This document shows positions 2,120 to 59,310 of a stretch of DNA of 59,310 nt, one piece after another. The stretch spans positions 1 through 59,310 of IMG/VR virus record IMGVR_UViG_3300010366_000014; one strand, 5' to 3'. Each line of letters opens with the position of its first letter. The stretch's first letter is position 1. The DNA is from a virus. Its lineage: Duplodnaviria; Caudoviricetes. The notes under the pieces were generated by a model. That model was not told the origin of the DNA. It worked only from the letters and a program-made list of their open reading frames with translations, and searched no databases. The translations under genes were made by a program, and so were the position numbers.

Positions 2120-2422
2120 TCAGGCGATCGCGGCGGAGCCGGTCTCGGGCCAGCCAGCACGCCCGAGGGCGCGCTGGAGGGCAGCGAACTCGACCTGATG
2201 GTCGATGACGAGCCGGTGGGTTGCCGGCGTGTAGTGGTGGGTGCGGACACCGTGATACCACGTCTCATCGTGGTGGCCGTCGGTGGTGCCGACCCACATC
2301 GGCACGCCCGTCTGGCTATGATCCTTGGCCAGGACACGCGCGCGGGTGAGGGTGGAGCAGACGATCTCCTCCTGATGGTAGAGGGCGCGCGGGAACATGA
2401 CGCGGAAATACTTGTGTCGCAT
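2120..2422 (-). CDS. Hypothetical early protein downstream of hammerhead HH3
   Basis: GGGAGAG RBS then MRHKYFRVMF... Confidence 0.75.
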   Translation of the reverse strand: MRHKYFRVMFPRALYHQEEIVCSTLTRARVLAKDHSQTGVPMWVGTTDGHHDETWYHGVRTHHYTPATHRLVIDHQVEFAALQRALGRAGWPETGSAAIA

Positions 2423-2432
2423 GGTGGTGACT

Positions 2433-2505
2433 CTCCCGTTTCGCGCTTATTGGCCGTAGCCACGCGCGCATTCAGCGCCGGCACCGATTAGCCGGTAGAC
2501 GGGAG
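2433..2505 (-). ncRNA. Type III hammerhead ribozyme HH3 (variant core)
   Basis: Minus strand: CUCCCG-UC | UACCGGC-uaaucggu-GCCGGCG | CUGAAUGC | GCGC-g-UGGC-uacg-GCCA-auaa-GCGC | GAAA | CGGGAG. Predicted GUC cleavage between 2498 and 2497. Confidence 0.75.
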
Positions 2506-2529
2506 GGCGGCGGGTGCCGCCCGGGGAAA

Positions 2530-2766
2530 CTAGGCCTCGTTCACGCGGCCGCGCATGAGGGTGATGTAGTTCGTCTCGAAGCTCATGACGGTGACCTCGC
2601 GCTGCCGGAGAACGGCGGCGACGGCCTGACGCTGCCACGTCTCGCGGATCGGCTCGGTGGTCTCACCGCGAATATCCAGTTCCATGTTGATGGACTGGAT
2701 GCGATTCTTGAGGCGCTCGGAGCGCTGGAGCTGGGCGATGTGCGGGTGAACGGCGTGCTTTGCCAT
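2530..2766 (-). CDS. Hypothetical early protein
   Basis: GGGAG RBS then MAKHAVHPHIAQ... Confidence 0.75.
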   Translation of the reverse strand: MAKHAVHPHIAQLQRSERLKNRIQSINMELDIRGETTEPIRETWQRQAVAAVLRQREVTVMSFETNYITLMRGRVNEA

Positions 2767-2832
2767 GGTGGTGACTCCCTGATGGTGAAGGTGGCGGACC
2801 GGCCCGAGCGGCCGGCCCGATGTCATATCCCC

Positions 2833-3066
2833 TTAGCTGGCGCTCTCGGCGGCCGGCCGGACGCGGACGATGAGATCGTCCGAGTAGATCTTGAGCACCT
2901 CGAGCGGGGTCTCGCGATCGATCATGCGCATGGCCTGCCGATCGATGCCGGTGCGGATCGAGATCGCGGTCTCGCCCCTGGTGTTGAGATTGAAGCGGAT
3001 AACGCGGGCCTTGGCCTGCGCGCGCTTGATGTCGTTGACGGTCTTCTGGACGGATGTGGTGCTCAT
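2833..3066 (-). CDS. Hypothetical early protein downstream of hammerhead HH2
   Basis: GAGGAG RBS then MSTTSVQKTVNDIK... Confidence 0.75.
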   Translation of the reverse strand: MSTTSVQKTVNDIKRAQAKARVIRFNLNTRGETAISIRTGIDRQAMRMIDRETPLEVLKIYSDDLIVRVRPAAESAS

Positions 3067-3080
3067 GGTGTGGTGTGACT

Positions 3081-3139
3081 CCTCGTTTCGCGCTACTGCG
3101 CTCATTCAGCGCCCGGACCTGTAACCGGGACAGACGAGG
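3081..3139 (-). ncRNA. Type III hammerhead ribozyme HH2 (core with one extra A)
   Basis: Minus strand: CCUCG-UC | UGUCCCGG-uuacaggu-CCGGGCG | CUGAAUGA | GCGC-agua-GCGC | GAAA | CGAGG. Predicted GUC cleavage between 3133 and 3132. Confidence 0.85.
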
Positions 3140-3419
3140 GTTGGGGTCGCTGGCGCGCCGGTAATGTTGGAAAATCCCGGGGCGCGGTACGAACGGTAAT
3201 ACTGGATCGGGCGGGGGGAATTTTCCGGGGCGCGGGGGAGGCGGTATAGACGGAATGCGGCGGCGCGCGCGGGCGGGATCGGCGGGGCGGAGGCGATCGG
3301 CGGCTGGCCGGAGCGTGGGCGTACGTACACAGCGGGTCTGGCCTGATGCGCGCGGCCGGCCGGACACTGCCGGCAGCGGCCGCGATGCGCGTGGGGACGG
3401 ATCGGCCGGCCGGCCGGAC

Positions 3420-4154
3420 CTATTGGCCGGCCGCGATCGCGGCCGCTTTGGCCGCGTCCTTGCGTGCTTTGGTGGCCGCGCGCTTTGCAGCGGTCCGGGC
3501 CTTTGCGGCCGCGCGCGCGACCATATCGGTCGGCGGGGTCGGCGGGACAATCAGCGTGCCGGCAAGCGCGGCCGCAAGTGAGTTGAAATAGATCGCGTGT
3601 CCGCTGCCGGCGTAGGTCGCCTGCCAATCAGCGTACGCGCGCCATTGATTGGCGGCCGATCCGTCAAACAAGAGGAACGCATCGGTGATGTACTCATTCC
3701 ATGTCGCCCAATCACCGCGCAGCTTTTCCGCGTCCGCTTTGGAAAGTCCCATGCCTTTGCGCAAAGCCAGGATATCGATGCAGGGACAATCGTATCCCAT
3801 GCATGCGGCCGCAAAGGATGCCTTTGCAAAGGCCAGACCGGTGATATTGTCCTTGATGAACGCGGCCATATCCCAATCGGATCGGCGGAAATCGGCCGTC
3901 GTAAGCTTTGGCAAGAGCGCATCCACGTCCTGAAGGCCGTCATGCGTCATGCTGAAGAACCGCTTGTGATGGGTCTCCCCATCAACCGTCCATTCACCGA
4001 AGTGCTCCTCGTGAGGAGCTACCTTCTCATTGACGCTGTGCAGCGCAAAGCCGCACCCAAAGCGAAAGAGCGTCCGCAGTCCGGCCGTATCGTCTTCCTC
4101 AATCATCGCGATACGGACCGCAGACAGAACCTGAAGATTGTCCAACGCTTGCAT
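3420..4154 (-). CDS. HhH-GPD DNA glycosylase-like protein with Ala/Lys/Arg-rich C-terminal tail; first gene of the early operon
   Basis: ITGLAFAKASFAAACMGYDCPCID resembles the HhH...Asp motif of Ogg2/EndoIII-superfamily enzymes. Start moved to MQALDNL (AAGGA RBS) because the upstream ATG lies inside HH1. Confidence 0.6.
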   Translation of the reverse strand: MQALDNLQVLSAVRIAMIEEDDTAGLRTLFRFGCGFALHSVNEKVAPHEEHFGEWTVDGETHHKRFFSMTHDGLQDVDALLPKLTTADFRRSDWDMAAFIKDNITGLAFAKASFAAACMGYDCPCIDILALRKGMGLSKADAEKLRGDWATWNEYITDAFLLFDGSAANQWRAYADWQATYAGSGHAIYFNSLAAALAGTLIVPPTPPTDMVARAAAKARTAAKRAATKARKDAAKAAAIAAGQ

Positions 4155-4192
4155 GGTACACATCCTTGCCGGCAGCGGCCGGCCACATTCAT

Positions 4193-4252
4193 ACGCGCTG
4201 ATTTCGCCATCCATGGCTCATCAGACCGGATCACATCCGATTATCATCGCGT
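4193..4252 (-). ncRNA. Type III hammerhead ribozyme HH1 (canonical core)
   Basis: Minus strand: ACGCG-a-UGAU-A | AUCGGAU-gug-AUCCGGU | CUGAUGA | GCCA-ugga-UGGC | GAAA | UCA-g-CGCGU. Predicted AUA cleavage between 4242 and 4241. Confidence 0.9.
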
Positions 4253-4531
4253 CCGGTCCGCGTCCTACATCCGGCCGGCCGTATCTACCCTGCTTTGGCT
4301 ATCTAGGCCATGCGTCGATACGGCCGCGTGTATTCCGCGTCCGGTGATTGCTACTCGCGCACATCAACAGTACTCCGGCTTTTCACATAGCAGCGTGTCC
4401 GCCGTACTTTCAGGTATGGGTACAGAGGTTGCCTATGCGGCCGGGATCATCCCATGAATGGGGTCCGCGCGAGGGGCGGGCGTCGCGCGCGTGGGACTGC
4501 GCGTCGCGCCCTGGCTTCAACTGTCAAGGAC

Positions 4532-4561
4532 AGTATAGCAGGCGAAGCGCCTACCTGTCAA
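4532..4561 (-). promoter_or_regulatory. Strong sigma70-type early promoter with palindromic operator in the spacer
   Basis: Minus strand TTGACA-18 nt-TATACT with TGn extension; spacer contains TAGGCG-CTT-CGCCTG. Confidence 0.8.
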
Positions 4562-4732
4562 GCGCCTAGGGCATGCAATTTTCCGCGTCCGGACCCGGAA
4601 TACGGCCGGCCGATCGGACCCTACCGCTTAGTGGCAGCAGTTACCGTGTGAGACATAATCCCCATGGAATGATAGCCGCGCGCGCAGGCCTGTGGGGGAT
4701 GATAGCCGGACGTACCATCACCCGGGCGTATC

Positions 4733-4981
4733 TAGGCGTCTCGCCTATACCCATGGGGATCGATAGCCTCGGCCAATGGTGCAGGGCGGATGTTATCGCC
4801 ACGCTACGGATCGGCGTGGGGCCGGCGGGATCGATCGGACCCGACACCGGACCCGGACCCCGGGGCACGCGCGCCGATCGGCCGGGACGATCCATACCAC
4901 TATGCGAACATTCCCCATAGGCGCCTCGCCTAGGCCTGGAGGCACGGACCCCGGGAAGATCGTCCCTAGGCGTCTCGCCTA
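4733..4981. promoter_or_regulatory. Three copies of palindrome TAGGCG-N3-CGCCTA
   Basis: Copies at 4733-4747, 4918-4932 and 4967-4981. Confidence 0.75.
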
Positions 4982-18151: not shown

Positions 18152-18411
18152 CGTTGCCGCAGTACCAGCAAGACGAGCTGTACGACTTCTATTGCCAGTT
18201 CGGGAACCACGACGAAAAGGGCCGCGTGATCGGCCTCTTCCGCGCGCGCGCCTCCGTCACCGGACTGGAGCGGGACATCTCCTGGGCCGACTTCAAGGCC
18301 GGCAGGCTGCCGGCGGAGATGCGCGCCCAGGAGGCGAAAGAGGACGCGGCCGCGCGCTCCCACCGGACGCGACAGGCCGACGCGGTCTTCGGCATGCTCC
18401 TTGGTAGGTGA
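18079..18411 (+). CDS. Tail assembly chaperone GT extension via -1 frameshift
   Basis: GGTTTTTC at 18079-18086; the -1 frame is open from here (FSESRFRALVIGDRLGIVYTSILALPQYQQDEL...) to 18411. Confidence 0.75.
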   Translation, partial: GFSESRFRALVIGDRLGIVYTSILALPQYQQDELYDFYCQFGNHDEKGRVIGLFRARASVTGLERDISWADFKAGRLPAEMRAQEAKEDAAARSHRTRQADAVFGMLLGR

Positions 18412-21400
18412 AAGTGGACGAGGATAATCTCCACATAGGCATAACTACCGACGCTGAGAAGGCGATCCAAGATCTGGATCGGCTCGATCAGAAACTGGAG
18501 GGTCTTGGCCAAAAACGGGTCAAGACACAGGTTGAGATCGACCACGAACAGGCGAAGCGCGATCTCGCGGAACTGGAGAACCTGACGGCCCGGATGCGGG
18601 CGCAAGCGGTCGGCATCGAAGTGGATGTCGTGGGCGACGCGGATCGCGACCTCCAGGCGCTGATCGATGATACGAAGTTCCTCAACGCTTCGGTTGTCAA
18701 TGTCAAGGTAGGGCTTGACACCTCGGAGGCCCGCCGCCAGCTTGCACTGTACGAGCAGGAGACGGCACGCCTCGCGCTGGAGAAGCTCGGTGTCACGGTC
18801 ACCCTGGAAGATCAGGCGTCGAAACCGCTCCACGAGATCGAGCTGAAGATCCGCGAGTTGAACGCGATGCGGGCGCGCGTCAACCTCACCGCGACGGCGG
18901 ATTCCGCCCCCGACCCGTTCGAGGGTCTGAGGCGGGAAGTGGCGGAGATCGACAACCAGACCGCGCGCATGCGGGCGCAAAAGGTCGGCCTCCAAATCGA
19001 CAACGCCCAGGCAGAGCGCTCGCTTCAGGAGGTGCAGCTCGACACCCAGAAGGTCAACGCGCTCGTGGCCCAGAAGCGCGCGCTCGAGATCGACACCACC
19101 CAGGCCAGCGAAGGCCTCGGCCAGACGTTGCAGCGCCTCCAGGCGATCGTCGCCTATTCCGCCGGCTATCAGGCGTTCCACGCGATCGAGCAGGGCGCAC
19201 AGGCCGCGATGGGCGCGATCATCGGCTTCAACGACACCCTCGAGCGCACCCAGATCGCCTTCACCCAGATGCTCGGCTCATCGTCGGCCGCGACGGATAT
19301 GCTCGCCCAGCTCAAGCAGTTCGCCATCTCGACCCCGTTCCAGTTCGATGGGCTGACCCAGAGCGCCCAGCAACTGATGGCGATGGGCGTGGCCGCGCGC
19401 GACGTGATCCCCGACCTGACCGCGATCGGCGACGCGGTGGCCGGCGTCGCGGGCGATCAGGAGGTGCTGAACCGGGTTGTCCTGGCCTTCGGGCAGATCT
19501 CCGCCGCCGGCAAAGCCACGGCCCAGGATCTGCGCCAGCTCACCCAGGCCGGCATCCCCGCCTACGAGATGCTGGCCAAAGCCCTCGGCACCGATGTGGC
19601 CGGCGCGATGAAGCAAGTGACGGCCGGCGCGGTCGATAGTCAGACGGCGATCGACGCACTGATCTCGGGCATCGAGGAGCGCTCCGGTGGCCTGATGAAG
19701 GCCCAAATGGGCACCCTGCAAGGCCAGCTCTCGAACCTCAAAGACACGATGCAGCAGGAGCTTGCCGACCTGGGCAAGCCGATCTTCGAGAGCGTCAAGC
19801 AGCTCGTCGCCGGCCTCGGCGAAGGCCTCTCCTCCGAGAAGTTTAAAGCAGTCGCCACTGACATTATTCAGGTGGTGGAGGAGCTGCTCGGTGCCTTCAC
19901 GAAGCTGGCCGAGTTCCTGGCCAATGTGCCGACGGGCCTGATCGAGTGGGGCATCCGGGCGGCCGAGGTCGCCGTCGGCCTGCGCGCGATCAACACCGTC
20001 GTCGGCGGGGTCCAGACCGCGCTGCGCGCCACGGCCACCTTCTTCGCGCTGGAGACGGCCGCGACGAAGGCCGACACCGTCGCCACCGAAGAGAACACGA
20101 TCGCCCACGTCGCCAACGCGGCCTCGCGCCAGAGCATCACCATGGGCGGCGCGATCGGCGCGCCGATCCAGTCCGCCGTCACCGCGACCCGGGGCGGGCT
20201 GGCTGCGGGCACGGCCACGGCCGCAGAGGCGGCGGGTGCCCTGGCGATGCCCGTCACCGTGGCGGCCACGGTCCTCTTCGTCTCCGCCGCGATCGGCGAC
20301 CAGATCCAGCAGCACCTGAATAAGGAAGCGGCCAAAGCGCACGAGCAGCTCCGCGACCAGCAACTGAACTTCGAGGTGAGTGCCGCGCTCAATGTCGCGG
20401 GCGTCGATAGCGTGACGGCCGAATACGAGAAGCTCGGCCGGCAGATCCAGCAGACGACGGATATGCAGAAGGCCTTCGCGCAATCCTCGAGCGGGCTGGC
20501 GAACGCGGTCGCCCCGGGGCTGACCGGTGACATCAACGCGCTGAAGGCGGCCCAGGCACAGGTCGATCCGAACTATCTCCAGCGGCAGGCCGATGAAGGC
20601 TTGCAGAAGATGATGGATCAGGCCAAGCGCTCCGTGGAGGACATTCACGGCAAGGGGTCCACCGAGGAGATCGCGAAGAACGCGCAAGCGGCGAAAGACG
20701 CCATCCTCGGCATGGGCACGGCCTATGTGATGGCGCACGGTGATATTGAGGAGTTCACGAAAGCGGTCATCGCCTTCAATCAGGCGATTGACGATCAGAC
20801 CATTGCCAGCCAGAAGCGTCTCGTCCAGCAACAGCAACAGCATGACCAGATGGTCAAGGACGCGGCGGAGATCGCCAAGGAAGCGAGCGCCACCGGTCTG
20901 GCGCAGCCGGTCGATGTCATGGCAGGCCTCGAGGGCACCGATAAGGCGAGTGCCGACCAGATCAAGCTGATCAAGGATCACTATTCCCAGCTCGAACAGG
21001 AACAAAAGGATGCGCAGCAGCGCATCTTGGAGAGCGCGCGCAAGTTCGATCAGGATCTTTCCCAGGCCGTCCAGCAGGCGCAGCAAGCGGTCGGGCGTGT
21101 CGATCTCTCAAAGGGTCTGACCGGCCTCGCCAATGTCGCGCCCGATCTCCAGAAGGCCCAGGAGGCGCTCTCCGAGCTGGGTCGTAGCTCGGGCGCGCTC
21201 GACAACCTGACGGCGATCGCCAGCTCATTCCAGGCGATCACGGACGCGGAGCACGATGCCAGCGAGGCCTTCGATGGCTACCTGACCCTCTTCGATGAGA
21301 CCGATCGCCGCATCAAGGTGCTGGACGATCTGAAGAAGAAACTGGACGATCAGGTCAAGGCCGCGCAGGATGCGCAGAAGATCGGCACGGCCACCCCCGA

Positions 21401-24400
21401 ACAAACCGAGCTACTCGGCAAGGCCGCGACGGCCTACGCGAATATCGACGCGATCCGGGGCCGCTTGCAGAACAATCAGATCCAAGACCTTTTCGGCATG
21501 GGCCAGAACGTCGAGGATCTCCTCACGGCCGACAACACGATGCGCTCGATCGCGAGCCAGTACGGCTCGATGAAAGACATGCGCATCACGGTCGAGACGA
21601 ACGTCAAGCAAGTCGAATCCGATCTCGACGCGCTGACGAACAAGCCCCGCACCGTCTATCTCGATGTCAAGACGCGCGGCGGCACCGGTGGCCCGGGCAT
21701 CGACTACGCCGGTGGCGGCGATTACGGCGGCACCGGCTCGGGTTTCGATCCCTACGGCTATGCGCGCCAGATGCTCGGTGCCGGGGTCGGCGGCAACACG
21801 GCGACTCCGCGCGGCGACGCCACCGCGCTCAAGCAGTACTACGACATCATCCAGCAGGCCGCGAGCACCTACCACGTCGATCCGACCCTGATCGGCGCGA
21901 TCATCATGCACGAATCGGGCGGCACGGCCGGCGCGGTGCAGCAGGGCGGCCTCGGCCGTGGCCTGATGCAGGTTGATCTCGGCCAGCACCCGGGAGAGAA
22001 CGAGACCCTCCTCACCGGCACCACCCGCGAGGCCGTCACCTATCAGATCATGGAGGGCGCGAAAATCCTCGCGCAGAGCCTCGCTGCGGCCGGAGGCGAC
22101 ATCGCCAAGGGCATCCAGGGATACGCTGGCAGCGCCTACGTCTCCCAGGCGAATCAGGAGTTCGGCGTCCCCGCCGGCCTCTCCTTCTCCCAGGAGCTGA
22201 GCGGCTACTACACCGGCCCGGTCGGCAATGTCTTCGCCGGTGGTGGTGGCGGCGGCGGCGCAACGACGAACGTGTCGCCGCAGCTCCCCCAGGTCAACCG
22301 GGTCTCGCTCACCCAGCCAACATCCAACCCGCTTGCGGGCAGCAACATCAACGTCGCCGCGATGCGCAAGCGCGCGCAGGAGCTGGCCGGCCAAGCGTAT
22401 GTCTACGGCGGCGGCCACAGCGCCGGCGACACCGGCGGCTTCGACTGCTCCGGCTACGTCGCCGAAGTGATGCGCGCCGGTGGCATCAACGTCCCCTGGA
22501 CCGACGCGGGCGGACTCTACAAGTGGGCGCAGACGAGCGAGGGGCAGGCGGCGCTCGCGGCCGCCGGGATCCAGCTCGGCTTCTATAACCCGGGCGCGGG
22601 CGGCATGAACGAGCACGTCGCCATCAATGTCGGCGGCGACTGGTTCGAGTCCGGCGGCATGCGCGGCGACACCAGCGGTCCCAGCCCGAACGCGGCGCAG
22701 GGACTCAACACCTTCGTCGGCACGCCGCGCGCGCTCGGCGGCGGGGGCGGCGGGGTCGCCGGCCTCCAGACCACCGGTGGCGGCGGCGCGGCCGGTCCGT
22801 TCGGTACGACCAACATCTTTGCCGAGAGCGCCGACTCGATCGCGGCCGCGACGCGCGCCGCCGAGGCGCAGGGCAAGCTCCAGTCCGCGATCGACGGTGC
22901 GAAAAATGCCCAGCAGGCGTTCAACGATTCGCTCAAGAACGTCGATCCCCGGAATGTTGCGAACATCACCGAACAGTTCTCGAAGCTCCTGCCGGTCATG
23001 CAAAAGGCCGAGCAGACGAAGCTGCCCGATAACGCCACTGCCCTGGAAAAGCAGACGGCGATTATGACGGCCTACCAGAAGACCTACGAGGGCGCGCGCC
23101 TCTGGGGTGAAGCGATCACCGAGATCGATACCGGCACCGGTGACCTCGCCGCCACCGAGCAGAAAATTGCCGAGACGATCGGCGGCCCCGTCAGCGACGC
23201 GATGAAGGCCCAGCTCGACATCATGAAGGAGCAAAAGGCGACCGCTGACCAGATCGCCATGCTCACCCAGCGCAAATCGGATCTGGAGACCCAGTACAAA
23301 CAGATACAGCAGGGCGAACAGGACGCGGACCGGCAACGACAGCGCGACCAGCAGCTCCAGCAGCGCCAGCAGCAGGATGCCGACACCCAGCGGCAGCGAT
23401 CCCGCACGCTCGAGCAGCGGCAGATCGAGGATTCCCGCACGGCCGCCAACCGGCAGTATCAGGCGGAGACGGACGCGATCCAGAATGCCGATCGGCTCCG
23501 ACAGGTCGCGCACCAGAACGCGATGCGCGGCATCGAGGATCGTACCAACGCCGAAAATGATGGCTGGACGCAACGGTCCCGCCAGCTCCAGCAGCAGCAG
23601 GAGCAGCTCCAGCACTACGGCACGCTCCAGAAGCAGCAGCTCCAAGACGCCCAGAAGGCACGGGACGAGGCGCATACGGCCGATGAGCGCCAGCGATCGG
23701 CGCAGGGTCAGCTCTATTCCGTCTCGGCCCGGGTCTCGACCACCGAGACCTCCGCCCTCTACTGGGGCGCGGCGGCCTCGGCGCTCAAGGATCTCCAGAC
23801 CACCGCTGACGAGCTTTACCAGAATCAAACGGACGACAATAAAAAGTTACAGGATGAACAGGATCGCGCGGCCGCCGAGCAGCTCTACCAGCTCCAGCAA
23901 CAGGTGGAGGCGGAGCAGAATGCCCATGAGGATCGGCTGAAGGCGATCGAAAAAGAGAGTACAACGCTCCAGCGAAACTATGAGGACGAGACGAATCGTC
24001 TCACTGAGGAAGCAGACATCCGGCAGAAGACCCATCAGATGCAGATGGATCTCTGGCAGGATGAGGACACGGCGCGGCAACGTGCCTACGAGGACGAGCA
24101 GTTCAATATCGAGCAGACCCGCCAGCAGCAGCAGCGGGCGAACGAAGACCAGCAATACGCGCTGGAGCAATCCCGCATCGCGGAGCAGCGGCAATATGAG
24201 CAGGCGCTGCAATCGATTGACGATGAAATCACGGCCCAGAAAGCACTCGCCCAGGAAGAGCAAAACCGGCTCGACGGGGCGCAGCGCGCGCTCTCGCTCT
24301 GGCAGCAGGCGGACAATGCCGTCGGCGATGCCGCGCAGACCCTGCTCGACGCCCTCGGCTCGATCGGCGGCCTGGGCACCCCGACGCACAAGGCCACGGG

Positions 24401-24743
24401 CGGCACGGTGGGCGGCACGGCGATCGTCGGCGACTCACCGGGCGGCGACCTTTCGACGGCCGAGGTCGTGACGGGGAACTTCAACGTCATCCCGCACGAT
24501 CAGGCGGCGGCCTTGGGCTACATCCCGGGCGGCGGCATGGGCCGCTACCTCACCGGCGGCCAGGGCAACGGCGGCGACTCGTACACGCTGAACTTCAATG
24601 CCTCGGGCAACCGGGACAGCGATCAGGAGATGTTCGCCAAGCTCACCGAGTGGGTGGAGCAGCGCCAGCGTGCCAGTGACATCACCATCCGGCGCAACAG
24701 CCTGAGCGCGCGCTCCGCCGCGCAGGGCGGGCCGCGCTACTAA
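18408..24743 (+). CDS. Tape measure protein with lytic transglycosylase and NlpC/P60 domains
   Basis: 2111 aa; AFTQMLGS/FAISTPFQF tape-measure motif; SLT motifs IMHESGG and GLMQV; NlpC motifs YVYGG, GFDCSGYV, EHVAI. Confidence 0.95.
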   Translation: MKVDEDNLHIGITTDAEKAIQDLDRLDQKLEGLGQKRVKTQVEIDHEQAKRDLAELENLTARMRAQAVGIEVDVVGDADRDLQALIDDTKFLNASVVNVKVGLDTSEARRQLALYEQETARLALEKLGVTVTLEDQASKPLHEIELKIRELNAMRARVNLTATADSAPDPFEGLRREVAEIDNQTARMRAQKVGLQIDNAQAERSLQEVQLDTQKVNALVAQKRALEIDTTQASEGLGQTLQRLQAIVAYSAGYQAFHAIEQGAQAAMGAIIGFNDTLERTQIAFTQMLGSSSAATDMLAQLKQFAISTPFQFDGLTQSAQQLMAMGVAARDVIPDLTAIGDAVAGVAGDQEVLNRVVLAFGQISAAGKATAQDLRQLTQAGIPAYEMLAKALGTDVAGAMKQVTAGAVDSQTAIDALISGIEERSGGLMKAQMGTLQGQLSNLKDTMQQELADLGKPIFESVKQLVAGLGEGLSSEKFKAVATDIIQVVEELLGAFTKLAEFLANVPTGLIEWGIRAAEVAVGLRAINTVVGGVQTALRATATFFALETAATKADTVATEENTIAHVANAASRQSITMGGAIGAPIQSAVTATRGGLAAGTATAAEAAGALAMPVTVAATVLFVSAAIGDQIQQHLNKEAAKAHEQLRDQQLNFEVSAALNVAGVDSVTAEYEKLGRQIQQTTDMQKAFAQSSSGLANAVAPGLTGDINALKAAQAQVDPNYLQRQADEGLQKMMDQAKRSVEDIHGKGSTEEIAKNAQAAKDAILGMGTAYVMAHGDIEEFTKAVIAFNQAIDDQTIASQKRLVQQQQQHDQMVKDAAEIAKEASATGLAQPVDVMAGLEGTDKASADQIKLIKDHYSQLEQEQKDAQQRILESARKFDQDLSQAVQQAQQAVGRVDLSKGLTGLANVAPDLQKAQEALSELGRSSGALDNLTAIASSFQAITDAEHDASEAFDGYLTLFDETDRRIKVLDDLKKKLDDQVKAAQDAQKIGTATPEQTELLGKAATAYANIDAIRGRLQNNQIQDLFGMGQNVEDLLTADNTMRSIASQYGSMKDMRITVETNVKQVESDLDALTNKPRTVYLDVKTRGGTGGPGIDYAGGGDYGGTGSGFDPYGYARQMLGAGVGGNTATPRGDATALKQYYDIIQQAASTYHVDPTLIGAIIMHESGGTAGAVQQGGLGRGLMQVDLGQHPGENETLLTGTTREAVTYQIMEGAKILAQSLAAAGGDIAKGIQGYAGSAYVSQANQEFGVPAGLSFSQELSGYYTGPVGNVFAGGGGGGGATTNVSPQLPQVNRVSLTQPTSNPLAGSNINVAAMRKRAQELAGQAYVYGGGHSAGDTGGFDCSGYVAEVMRAGGINVPWTDAGGLYKWAQTSEGQAALAAAGIQLGFYNPGAGGMNEHVAINVGGDWFESGGMRGDTSGPSPNAAQGLNTFVGTPRALGGGGGGVAGLQTTGGGGAAGPFGTTNIFAESADSIAAATRAAEAQGKLQSAIDGAKNAQQAFNDSLKNVDPRNVANITEQFSKLLPVMQKAEQTKLPDNATALEKQTAIMTAYQKTYEGARLWGEAITEIDTGTGDLAATEQKIAETIGGPVSDAMKAQLDIMKEQKATADQIAMLTQRKSDLETQYKQIQQGEQDADRQRQRDQQLQQRQQQDADTQRQRSRTLEQRQIEDSRTAANRQYQAETDAIQNADRLRQVAHQNAMRGIEDRTNAENDGWTQRSRQLQQQQEQLQHYGTLQKQQLQDAQKARDEAHTADERQRSAQGQLYSVSARVSTTETSALYWGAAASALKDLQTTADELYQNQTDDNKKLQDEQDRAAAEQLYQLQQQVEAEQNAHEDRLKAIEKESTTLQRNYEDETNRLTEEADIRQKTHQMQMDLWQDEDTARQRAYEDEQFNIEQTRQQQQRANEDQQYALEQSRIAEQRQYEQALQSIDDEITAQKALAQEEQNRLDGAQRALSLWQQADNAVGDAAQTLLDALGSIGGLGTPTHKATGGTVGGTAIVGDSPGGDLSTAEVVTGNFNVIPHDQAAALGYIPGGGMGRYLTGGQGNGGDSYTLNFNASGNRDSDQEMFAKLTEWVEQRQRASDITIRRNSLSARSAAQGGPRY

Positions 24744-57127: not shown

Positions 57128-57156
57128 ATTCTAGGCGGCGCGCCTAGCCGATGCAA
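57128..57156 (-). promoter_or_regulatory. Internal early promoter with TAGGCG-N3-CGCCTA operator
   Basis: Minus strand TTGCAT-17 nt-TAGAAT; palindrome CTAGGCG-GCG-CGCCTAG at 57131-57147. Confidence 0.8.
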
Positions 57157-58958: not shown

Positions 58959-59273
58959 TTAGAAGTTGAGGTAACGGTAAACGAGGCGCTCGATCTCGCC
59001 GATCTGGCGGATCTGGTCGCGCAGGCCGGCGGCCCGACGGGAGGCGTAGTCGCGATCTCCCTCGAGCCGGTACTCGGTGGCCATGTAGTCGCGCAGGGCG
59101 AAGTCGTTGCCCTCGGGGACGGTCTCGAGCGTGGCGCGGTGCGCGTCCAGGCGCTCGTCTGCGGTCACCAGACCGGCCTCCCACTGGTGGAGGTCGGTCC
59201 GGAGGTTGGCGGCCATCTTGGCCAGCTCGGCGTCGAAGGCACGGCGGCGCTTGCGGTAATCGGCGACTCTCAC
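58959..59273 (-). CDS. Hypothetical coiled-coil early protein
   Basis: GAGGAGAGG RBS next to the terminal inverted-repeat arm. Confidence 0.7.
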   Translation of the reverse strand: MRVADYRKRRRAFDAELAKMAANLRTDLHQWEAGLVTADERLDAHRATLETVPEGNDFALRDYMATEYRLEGDRDYASRRAAGLRDQIRQIGEIERLVYRYLNF

Positions 59274-59290
59274 TTGGTCACTTCCTCTCC

Positions 59291-59310
59291 TCGGTTCACC
59301 GGTATCGCAC
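59291..59310. repeat. Right arm of 20-bp inverted repeat at window ends
   Basis: TCGGTTCACCGGTATCGCAC is the reverse complement of 1-20. Confidence 0.95.

Follow-up and report, generated by a model that had tools for sequence, protein, structure and literature searches.

A three-hammerhead array in a soil-phage operon: probable processing into linear mRNAs and the question of circular mRNAs

Cleavage by hammerhead ribozymes leaves 5'-OH and 2',3'-cyclic phosphate ends. In retrozymes and viroid-like elements, which replicate or retrotranspose, the same ribozyme is present at both ends and is restored at the junction; in engineered 'Tornado'-type circular mRNAs, both ribozymes are discarded and an added stem holds the ends close to each other. 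The hammerhead-containing circular RNAs of retrozymes and viroid-like agents are described as non-coding (PMC5680766, PMC7761336). In phages, a gene layout punctuated by hammerheads has been known since 2011, when Perreault et al. (2011) reported hammerhead clusters flanking single prophage genes or short gene blocks (PMC3088659). Three such arrays, from Clostridium scindens, Azorhizobium caulinodans and Agrobacterium tumefaciens, were shown to be cut at all sites in vitro, and one of them also in vivo (PMC3088659). Circular and spliced products were raised in the same article, whose accessible text reports neither as detected. The biological role of phage and bacterial hammerheads is still called elusive in the accessible text of later publications (PMC13725137, PMC8782182).

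The DNA analyzed here is a stretch of 59,310 nucleotides (the window) from the IMG/VR virus record IMGVR_UViG_3300010366_000014, whose gene content includes a terminase, a Mu-type portal, a capsid and a tape-measure protein. Three type III hammerhead motifs (HH1, HH2 and HH3), all in the same sense on the minus strand, lie within 1.8 kb of this record, among the first genes of a putative early operon, which they bracket; the cuts are predicted after positions 4242, 3133 and 2498. The features of the locus are as follows, in the direction of the putative transcript, with the two predicted pieces last.

4532..4561, minus strand: promoter-like site TTGACA-18-TATACT, 11/12 consensus match with TG before the -10 element; putative function
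4195..4250, minus strand: HH1, type III hammerhead motif with canonical core; predicted cut after A4242, 3' product from 4241
3420..4154, minus strand: gene A, 244 aa, no assigned function, GC about 57% against 65% for the genome
3140..3419, minus strand: non-coding tail of the 1109-nt piece, 280 nt, GC 75-80%, without codon periodicity
3081..3139, minus strand: HH2, type III hammerhead variant with core CUGAAUGA; predicted cut after C3133
2833..3066, minus strand: gene B, 77 aa, no assigned function, weak paralogue of gene C
2530..2766, minus strand: gene C, 78 aa, no assigned function, ribosome-binding stretch GGAGUCACCACCAUG
2433..2505, minus strand: HH3, type III hammerhead variant with core CUGAAUGC and extended helix II; predicted cut after C2498
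2120..2422, minus strand: gene D, 100 aa, no assigned function, first gene past HH3
4241->3133, minus strand: piece 1, 1109 nt, gene A and the 280-nt non-coding tail
3132->2498, minus strand: piece 2, 635 nt, genes B and C

The preliminary description of this DNA had proposed two segments of about 1.1 and 0.63 kb, carrying one and two genes respectively, each flanked by a pair of same-sense ribozymes. The three minus-strand motifs are indeed located where that description had placed them, gene A lies in the first segment and genes B and C in the second, and the computed lengths are 1109 and 635 nt. Like the clusters of Perreault et al. (PMC3088659), as far as their accessible text describes them, the locus combines several same-sense hammerheads in about 2 kb of a phage early region, among genes of unknown or varying identity. 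The role proposed for those clusters was likewise the cutting of a long transcript into gene-length mRNAs, circles being already an alternative. Unlike those clusters, the array here is made up of type III motifs, HH1 having the canonical core and HH2 and HH3 a core with an inserted base, and its cuts are predicted ones.

HH1 possesses the core CUGAUGA ... GAAA, an exact match to the consensus, with a helix II of 4 bp, a helix I of 7 bp capped by a GUG loop and A4242 at position H17. Its helix III (GCGAUGAU/AUCAGCGC) comprises 7 pairs and one A.G mismatch. In HH2, the core is followed by helix II (GCGC/GCGC), then by GAAA and ACGAGG; the cut site reads CCUCGU C3133, and helix I contains 7 pairs with one U bulged and is closed by loop 1, UUACAGGU. 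The cut site of HH3 reads CUCCCGU C2498 and its loop 1 is UAAUCGGU. Both HH2 and HH3 carry one base inserted after A6 in the core ('A6a'), and HH3 has in addition C in place of A9; read strictly, the consensus CUGANGA ... GAAA is matched by HH1 and not by HH2 or HH3. In the minimum free energy folds of all three motifs, the helices meet at a three-way junction; loops close helices I and II, and helix III is left open. None of the three is discarded by the rejection rules given in the accessible text of Perreault et al. (PMC3088659), which demand an NUH triplet, an A15.1-U16.1 pair and no mispair adjacent to the core: the cleavage triplets are AUA in HH1 and GUC in both HH2 and HH3, and A15.1-U16.1 and G10.1-C11.1 are present in all three; the 1.1-2.1 pair is A-U in HH1 and U.G in HH2 and HH3. 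Each motif is intergenic and situated 13-41 nt 5' of a start codon, while gene C is not preceded by a ribozyme.

The three motifs are beyond chance. Neither a canonical type III motif of the quality of HH1 nor an A6a motif was recovered from dinucleotide shuffles of the window (0/300 each), and the pattern CTGAATG...CGAAAC has 2 matches against 0.04 expected. At the gathering score, an Rfam search of the window returned no hammerhead. Searched on short stretches, HH1 reached 19.2 bits with RF00008 (cut-off 48.5), and HH2 and HH3 had no Rfam hammerhead match at E<=10; with our model R1 of the A6a family, HH2 and HH3 score 70.5 and 83.7 bits. No further type I, II or III hammerhead and no other ribozyme class was found in the window.

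HH2 and HH3 have relatives in other phages. A family search pattern that left everything free except the core, helix II and two bases of helix III gave six matches in viral contigs, all with the full fold (89-99 bits), and none of the 29 matches in bacterial genomes exceeded 30 bits. Looser pattern scans (18 and 26 of 64 parts) yielded mostly chance hits among the matches listed; the tighter patterns were scanned in full. The resulting family comprises 5 distinct sequences across 7 records, in which both sides have changed in 8 of 18 pairs and 97.8% of cells pair, a level of covariation reached by none of 500 shuffles; the covarying helices are I and III. The A6 insertion is found in all five distinct sequences and loop 1 UAAUCGGU in four, HH2 being the exception with UUACAGGU, and the GUC site, the A15.1-U16.1 pair and the remainder of the core are retained across phages in elements of 51-66% GC. 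The covariation shows that the HH2/HH3 family is under structural selection. The six other contigs with an A6a motif have one copy each, and in all five that were searched whole the hammerhead is solitary. In all three distinct relatives of HH3, each strand of helix III can instead form a hairpin locally, so that product release would be favored. No relative of HH1 was found, hence there is no covariation support for this motif, whose weak points are its short loops and the helix III mismatch.

The A6a core has a possible precedent. In the accessible parts of Perreault et al. (PMC3088659), a core variant with an insertion after A6, assigned to Figure 5 and Figure S6, is treated as rare and of low activity, and the machine-read text of Figure S6 contains a marine-metagenome example reading UGAAUG. 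Judged from this machine-read text, the published variant would have the CUGA-A-UGA core of HH2 and HH3; text searches for the A6a core in the supplements returned no match. In contrast to the rare variant as published there, the A6a core has become fixed in the small phage family described above, whose helices I and III covary.

The genes give few clues to function. Gene A has four metagenomic homologues in the protein collection, all with the same MQ(A/S)L start, and no Pfam or PHROG match. Its AlphaFold model has a mean pLDDT of 63.4, and a comparison with the PDB gave no match at E<=0.001, the top rows being helix-hairpin-helix glycosylases with E ~0.5; Atlas scores of 0.75 were uninformative. 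Searches for relatives of the operon, with P0001 and P0005 in viral_contigs and with A2 and P0005 in metagenome_contigs, confirmed no locus, and a search with gene D gave only a single 19-residue match. At 12 loci encoding relatives (about 30% identity) of the downstream phrog_2319 protein, the best R1 match was 16.8 bits. Among GenBank phages, nothing matched the region, gene A or the hammerhead of the relatives, and the best match to the portal is 28% identical.

We consider that the three hammerheads probably punctuate one leftward early transcript and that its products are mainly linear mRNAs. From the motifs, their order and common strand, and the covariation of the HH2/HH3 family, we infer a single transcript, its cleavage and the fate of its products. 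A look-up of sequencing runs for positions 2300-4400 listed one DNA run that contains this DNA, possibly from the source sample, and no RNA run. Transcription would probably start at a putative operator-controlled promoter at 4561-4532, the one strong promoter-like site upstream of the array; it lies about 290 nt 5' of the HH1 cut and has an operator-like palindrome within its spacer. No terminator-like site was found between 5200 and 1349. Self-cleavage would then yield four RNAs: the leader (about 280 nt), the messages of gene A (1109 nt) and of genes B and C (635 nt), and a downstream message headed by gene D. In each 3' product, almost the entire ribozyme would persist as a structured leader with a 5'-OH, immediately ahead of the ribosome-binding site, and the 5' products would terminate in a 2',3'-cyclic phosphate; stability and translation of each message could thereby be uncoupled from those of its neighbors. 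Some transcripts may terminate within the GC-rich spacer after gene A. The spacer (3134-3440) was also considered as a structured RNA or terminator and rejected (z = -0.11 against shuffles).

Two alternatives concern what the motifs do in place of, or besides, such processing. HH2 and HH3 could be catalytically weak or dead derivatives whose folds serve in the 5'-UTR to control translation, bind proteins or affect RNA stability, in which case only HH1 or none would cut and no doubly cut piece would arise. The A6 insertion present in all five distinct family sequences is consistent with this proposal, as are its low activity in the single case tested in the accessible text of Perreault et al. 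(PMC3088659), the C at A9 in HH3, the lack of an Rfam match to either motif, and the location of the ribosome-binding sites of genes B and D inside helix III of HH2 and HH3. However, low activity in vitro is still activity, and what is retained across phages (the remaining core, the GUC site, the A15.1-U16.1 pair and, in four of five sequences, loop 1) forms the pattern expected of an active ribozyme. A masking role is also without clear support, exposure of the ribosome-binding sites being little changed by cleavage (predicted unpaired probability from 0.28 to 0.49 in HH2 and from 0.26 to 0.28 in HH3); with a change from 0.41 to 0.30 in HH1, unmasking by cleavage is unconvincing. We regard such a role for weak or dead derivatives as unlikely. 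Somewhat less probable still, in our judgment, is that the ribozymes mark the borders of cassettes exchanged as DNA, with gene A and HH1 a recent insert ahead of an older operon led by HH2. Gene A and its upstream region (~3580-4780) have 54-61% GC and a weak third-position bias, against 65% and a strong bias elsewhere; HH1, with 52% GC and a canonical core, is unlike HH2 and HH3, with 62-66% GC and the A6a core; and the flanked genes vary in the arrays described in the accessible text of Perreault et al. (PMC3088659). Composition by itself is nevertheless weak evidence, the searches of viral_contigs and metagenome_contigs confirmed no operon relative with which loci with or without the insert could be compared, and such exchange would be compatible with RNA processing.

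The other alternative is the one put forward in the preliminary description, that double cleavage is followed by head-to-tail joining of one piece or of both, which would then be translated as circles. The joining would be due either to a host RtcB-type ligase or, for the 635-nt piece, to the reverse reaction of a chimeric hammerhead in which the 5' strand of HH3 would be docked on the body of HH2. Its chemical premise is sound: 5'-OH and 2',3'-cyclic phosphate ends are those expected here, native RtcB has been shown to circularize engineered ribozyme-flanked coding RNAs in E. coli (PMC12628768, in its accessible text), and RtcB was found in 10 of 14 control genomes. The preliminary description was also correct in recognizing no ligase gene in the phage, as six-frame searches with RtcB, RNA_ligase, RNA_lig_T4_1, 2_5_RNA_ligase2 and LigT_PEase gave none, which itself speaks against circle formation. 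The two pieces differ in their ends. In the 635-nt piece, the predicted pairing of the 3' tail with the helix III strand of HH2 on the same RNA has -9.0 kcal/mol (cognate strand -10.4), the last 7 nt are single-stranded beside a 7-bp hairpin, and the minimum free energy fold of the junction is a three-way hammerhead junction. In contrast, the ends of the 1109-nt piece pair at only -2.0 kcal/mol, and its junction lacks a hammerhead fold because the three ribozymes differ from each other. The cross-pairing between HH2 and HH3 is explained by the CGUC/GAAACG common to the whole family together with the ribosome-binding site GGAG, and the helix III sequences of HH2 and HH3 have diverged through compensated changes. 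Elements that make circles keep identical ribozymes, unlike HH2 and HH3, whose family relatives are moreover solitary. No open reading frame benefits from either junction, and neither 1109 nor 635 is a multiple of three; the only circle-specific frames are off-frame, GC-rich and end 8-24 nt beyond the junction, and they were rejected as candidates. In addition, circular and spliced products were sought in comparable arrays by Perreault et al. (2011), and none was detected according to the accessible text (PMC3088659, data not shown). The evidence thus leans against circles as the purpose of the motifs, and we hold their formation to be improbable.

Circle-forming systems offer a comparison. 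The pieces resemble 'Tornado'-type circular mRNAs, as these are described in the accessible text of PMC12628768, in that two self-cleaving ribozymes flank a coding RNA that has its own ribosome-binding site and whose ends would be 5'-OH and cyclic phosphate. With retrozymes and viroid-like RNAs they share the predicted excision of an RNA of 0.6-1 kb that is bounded on either side by a type III hammerhead (PMC5680766, PMC7761336, accessible text). Unlike in 'Tornado' designs, the upstream ribozyme would stay on the piece, and pairing of the ends is predicted in the 635-nt piece only and is incidental to family conservation; unlike in retrozymes and viroid-like RNAs, the ribozymes differ and the pieces are protein-coding, in a dsDNA phage operon. 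The idea of circular mRNAs at this locus is neither new nor, at present, supported. For the 635-nt piece, a circle is structurally possible in these models, given the predicted pairing of its two ends and the hammerhead fold of its junction. In its most specific, and highly improbable, form, this piece would close itself without any protein: the 3' tail CUCCCGUC, bearing the cyclic phosphate, would dock at the piece's own 5' end on the HH2 body, namely on its helix III strand, which would rebuild a hammerhead active site, and the reverse reaction would seal a translatable circle. The conserved A6a insertion could alter the balance between cleavage and ligation. If true, a natural circular mRNA would be known for the first time from a dsDNA phage, made by two different hammerheads acting as one.

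Considered as a probable site of linear mRNA processing, this soil-phage locus represents a clean three-ribozyme example of the phage hammerhead array. The A6a variant is missed by Rfam models yet conserved and covarying in a few phages, which suggests that such variants are under-counted. Finally, the 635-nt piece offers a concrete case for the fifteen-year-old question of whether such arrays make circles, as the predicted folds indicate that a ribozyme-templated circle would be structurally possible.

The preliminary description had placed three hammerhead ribozymes (HH1, HH2 and HH3) on the minus strand of this phage genome, and type III motifs were found exactly there, each adopting a three-way junction in its minimum free energy fold (3/3). 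The motifs delimit the following elements:

4250-4195, minus strand: HH1, canonical CUGAUGA...GAAA core, AUA cut site
3420-4154, minus strand: gene A, start set by MQ(A/S)L of homologues
3140-3419, minus strand: GC-rich non-coding tail between gene A and HH2, 280 nt, 75-80% GC
3139-3081, minus strand: HH2, GUC site, predicted cut after C3133
2505-2433, minus strand: HH3, GUC site, predicted cut after C2498

In HH1, A4242 is predicted to be the final base of the 5' product, and helices I, II and III comprise 7 bp, 4 bp and 8 positions including one A.G mismatch, respectively. The predicted cuts lie 1109 nt (HH1 to HH2) and 635 nt (HH2 to HH3) apart. The 1109-nt piece carries gene A and the tail, in which short repeats are seen (ATTACCG twice, GGAAAATTCC and GGGATTTTCC) and whose structure does not exceed that of shuffled sequences. 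The 635-nt piece bears two weakly paralogous genes, B and C (27% identity), and gene D follows HH3. Around the translation start, genes B, C and D are nearly identical, reading (G)GAGUCAC(AC)CACCAUG (3066-3084, 2764-2778 and 2420-2434), and a hammerhead is fused to this region for genes B and D only, gene C being without one.

The three motifs are not due to chance. Among 300 dinucleotide-shuffled versions of the window, neither a canonical type III motif of HH1 quality nor a motif of the HH2 kind occurred, and the core-plus-GAAAC pattern of HH2 and HH3 is present twice, versus 0.04 expected. A covariance model of the HH2/HH3 family recovered only HH3 (83.7 bits) and HH2 (70.5 bits) from the window; the best remaining match scored 16.1 bits, and HH1, at 10 bits, was inside the noise of this model. 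With the Rfam hammerhead models, HH2 and HH3 were unmatched at E<=10, even as 80-90-nt stretches, while HH1 scored 19.2 bits (cut-off 48.5). No further ribozymes emerged from scans for type I and II hammerheads or from an Rfam search of the entire window at E<=1.

The core of HH2 and HH3, CUGAAUG(A/C), differs from the consensus CUGANGA by one added base after A6 ('A6a'), HH3 having additionally a C at position A9. All of IMG/VR was scanned with a pattern fixing only this core, a GCGC helix II and GAAACG, which retrieved 6 viral contigs with 3 distinct sequences, all six with a complete hammerhead fold (89-99 bits). The identical pattern in the genomes of 185,579 species gave 29 stretches (best 29.6 bits), none with the GUC-helix I architecture; these stretches serve as a control that the pattern by itself does not create the fold. 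When loop 1 and the core were used as the key instead, a further scan run to completion yielded 14 stretches, with the same 6 contigs among them. Among the 5 distinct family sequences, both partners differ in 8 of 18 pairs and pairing is kept in 97.8% of cells, a level of pairing and covariation approached by none of 500 shuffles and by no slid register; helix II variation was excluded beforehand, since the search pattern fixed this helix. Loop 1 is UAAUCGGU in four of the five sequences (UUACAGGU in HH2), and in four of five helix II is extended and bulged on its 3' side, being minimal in HH2. Both features are as expected for the tertiary contact of natural hammerheads. From these comparisons, we conclude that HH2 and HH3 belong to a small hammerhead subtype, phage-borne and under selection, in which the core insertion is fixed and whose cleavage may be fast, slow or conditional.

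The relatives are solitary and reside on unrelated phage contigs of ~52% GC:

L251, 2993-3110, minus strand: A6a hammerhead
L253, 2940-3090, plus strand: A6a hammerhead
L254, 640-760, minus strand: A6a hammerhead

Each is preceded by a small ORF and followed, after ~35-50 nt, by the ATG of a gene that we take to resemble a DUF932-type gene. Whole-record searches with the covariance model found a single A6a hammerhead in each of five other viral records (5/5; 11-82% complete), and the 15.8 kb surrounding three of these contained no Rfam ribozyme; these solitary copies indicate that the function of the family needs no flanking partner. Conserved hairpins flank the relatives' hammerhead on both sides and compete with helix III: in each of the three distinct relatives, an ACGGG-loop-CCCGU hairpin can form at the end of the 5' product, and a GGAAC...GUUCC hairpin in the helix III strand carried by the 3' product. 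As modeled, this would be a design favouring release over re-joining.

Upstream of HH1 lies one strong promoter-like site:

4561-4532, minus strand: sigma-70-like site TTGACA-18-TATACT, 11/12 consensus match

From there down to position 1348, no terminator-like site was found, by a scan blind to the U-less terminators of GC-rich hosts. Together with the spacer after gene A, whose structure does not exceed that of shuffles, this makes it plausible that a single leftward transcript crosses all three ribozymes. A 15-bp palindrome, TAGGCG-N3-CGCCTA, is present in 5 copies at 0-1 mismatch in the window, four clustered at 4539-4981 in the regulatory gap that precedes HH1, including one in the -35/-10 spacer of the promoter-like site, and one at 57132-57146; at <=2 mismatches, 6 matches compare with 2.8 expected. 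These palindromes are probably repressor operators.

The genome (59,310 bases, ~65% GC) is rated 100% complete by CheckV, with 'linear' topology. It encodes a terminase nuclease domain, a Mu-type portal, a capsid protein E relative, HTH regulators, ParB, a VRR-NUC nuclease and the following protein:

18408-24743, plus strand: tape measure protein, 2111 aa, SLT transglycosylase and NlpC/P60 peptidase domains

This gene content identifies a tailed dsDNA phage. Among GenBank phages, no close cultured relative was found (best portal match 28% identical), nor any nucleotide match to the hammerhead region, and the public data containing this region are a single run of soil metagenome DNA. A minus-strand ORF of the phrog_2319 family (1-1326) runs past the record start and an open minus-strand frame (58959-59309) comes in from the record end; one possibility is that the genome is circularly permuted and that the record opens within the phrog_2319-family gene.

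It had been proposed that the ribozyme-flanked pieces could be joined head to tail into circular mRNAs by a host RtcB-type ligase, no ligase gene having been recognised in the phage. This absence holds: no RtcB, Rnl-type or 2'-5' ligase domain was detected in six frames or by Pfam on 76 ORFs. The idea is not new for such arrays, and the layout belongs to a known kind: in Perreault et al. (2011, PMC3088659), clustered hammerheads flank prophage genes, implying processing into operon- or gene-length mRNAs; circular or spliced products were raised there as an alternative, and neither was detected (data not shown). Engineered ribozyme-flanked circular mRNAs are described in another study as closed by native RtcB in E. 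coli (PMC12628768); the literature searched contained no report of a phage hammerhead array giving rise to a natural circular mRNA. The three ribozymes of the window differ among themselves. For the 1109-nt piece, pairing between the 3' end and the HH1 body reaches only -2.0 kcal/mol, and the junction lacks a hammerhead fold. In the 635-nt piece, the 3' tail pairs with its own HH2 helix III strand at -9.0 kcal/mol (-10.4 for the HH2 cognate strand), and the junction has a hammerhead in its minimum free energy fold, the last 7 nt being single-stranded beside a 7-bp hairpin. This cross-fit would offer the 635-nt piece a route to a ligation-competent end geometry; it arises from the family-wide CGUC/GAAACG together with the GGAG ribosome-binding site that lies within helix III, and is thus no evidence of selection for circles. 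Neither circle would create a useful junction-spanning reading frame. Circles would be chemically possible, with structural plausibility for the 635-nt piece only, and we consider them very unlikely as a relevant product.

That HH2 and HH3 are slow or inactive ribozymes seems unlikely; in Perreault et al. (2011, PMC3088659), the A6a insertion is a rare natural variant of low activity, and the text of Figure S6 gives a marine-metagenome example with UGAAUG. It is rather improbable that ribozyme-led cassettes are also units of exchange at the DNA level, a reading compatible with the others and hinted at by a stretch of low GC that includes HH1 and gene A: positions 3580-4780 (gene A, HH1 and leader) have 54-61% GC, versus 65% for the genome, with weak third-position bias, and are possibly a recently acquired ribozyme-led cassette. 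The most likely function, which we favour with some reserve, is ribozyme punctuation, by which the early operon transcript would be cut into linear messages, each retaining a folded 5'-OH leader before its ribosome-binding site. The conserved A6a subtype is the part that merits a ribozyme specialist's bench test.
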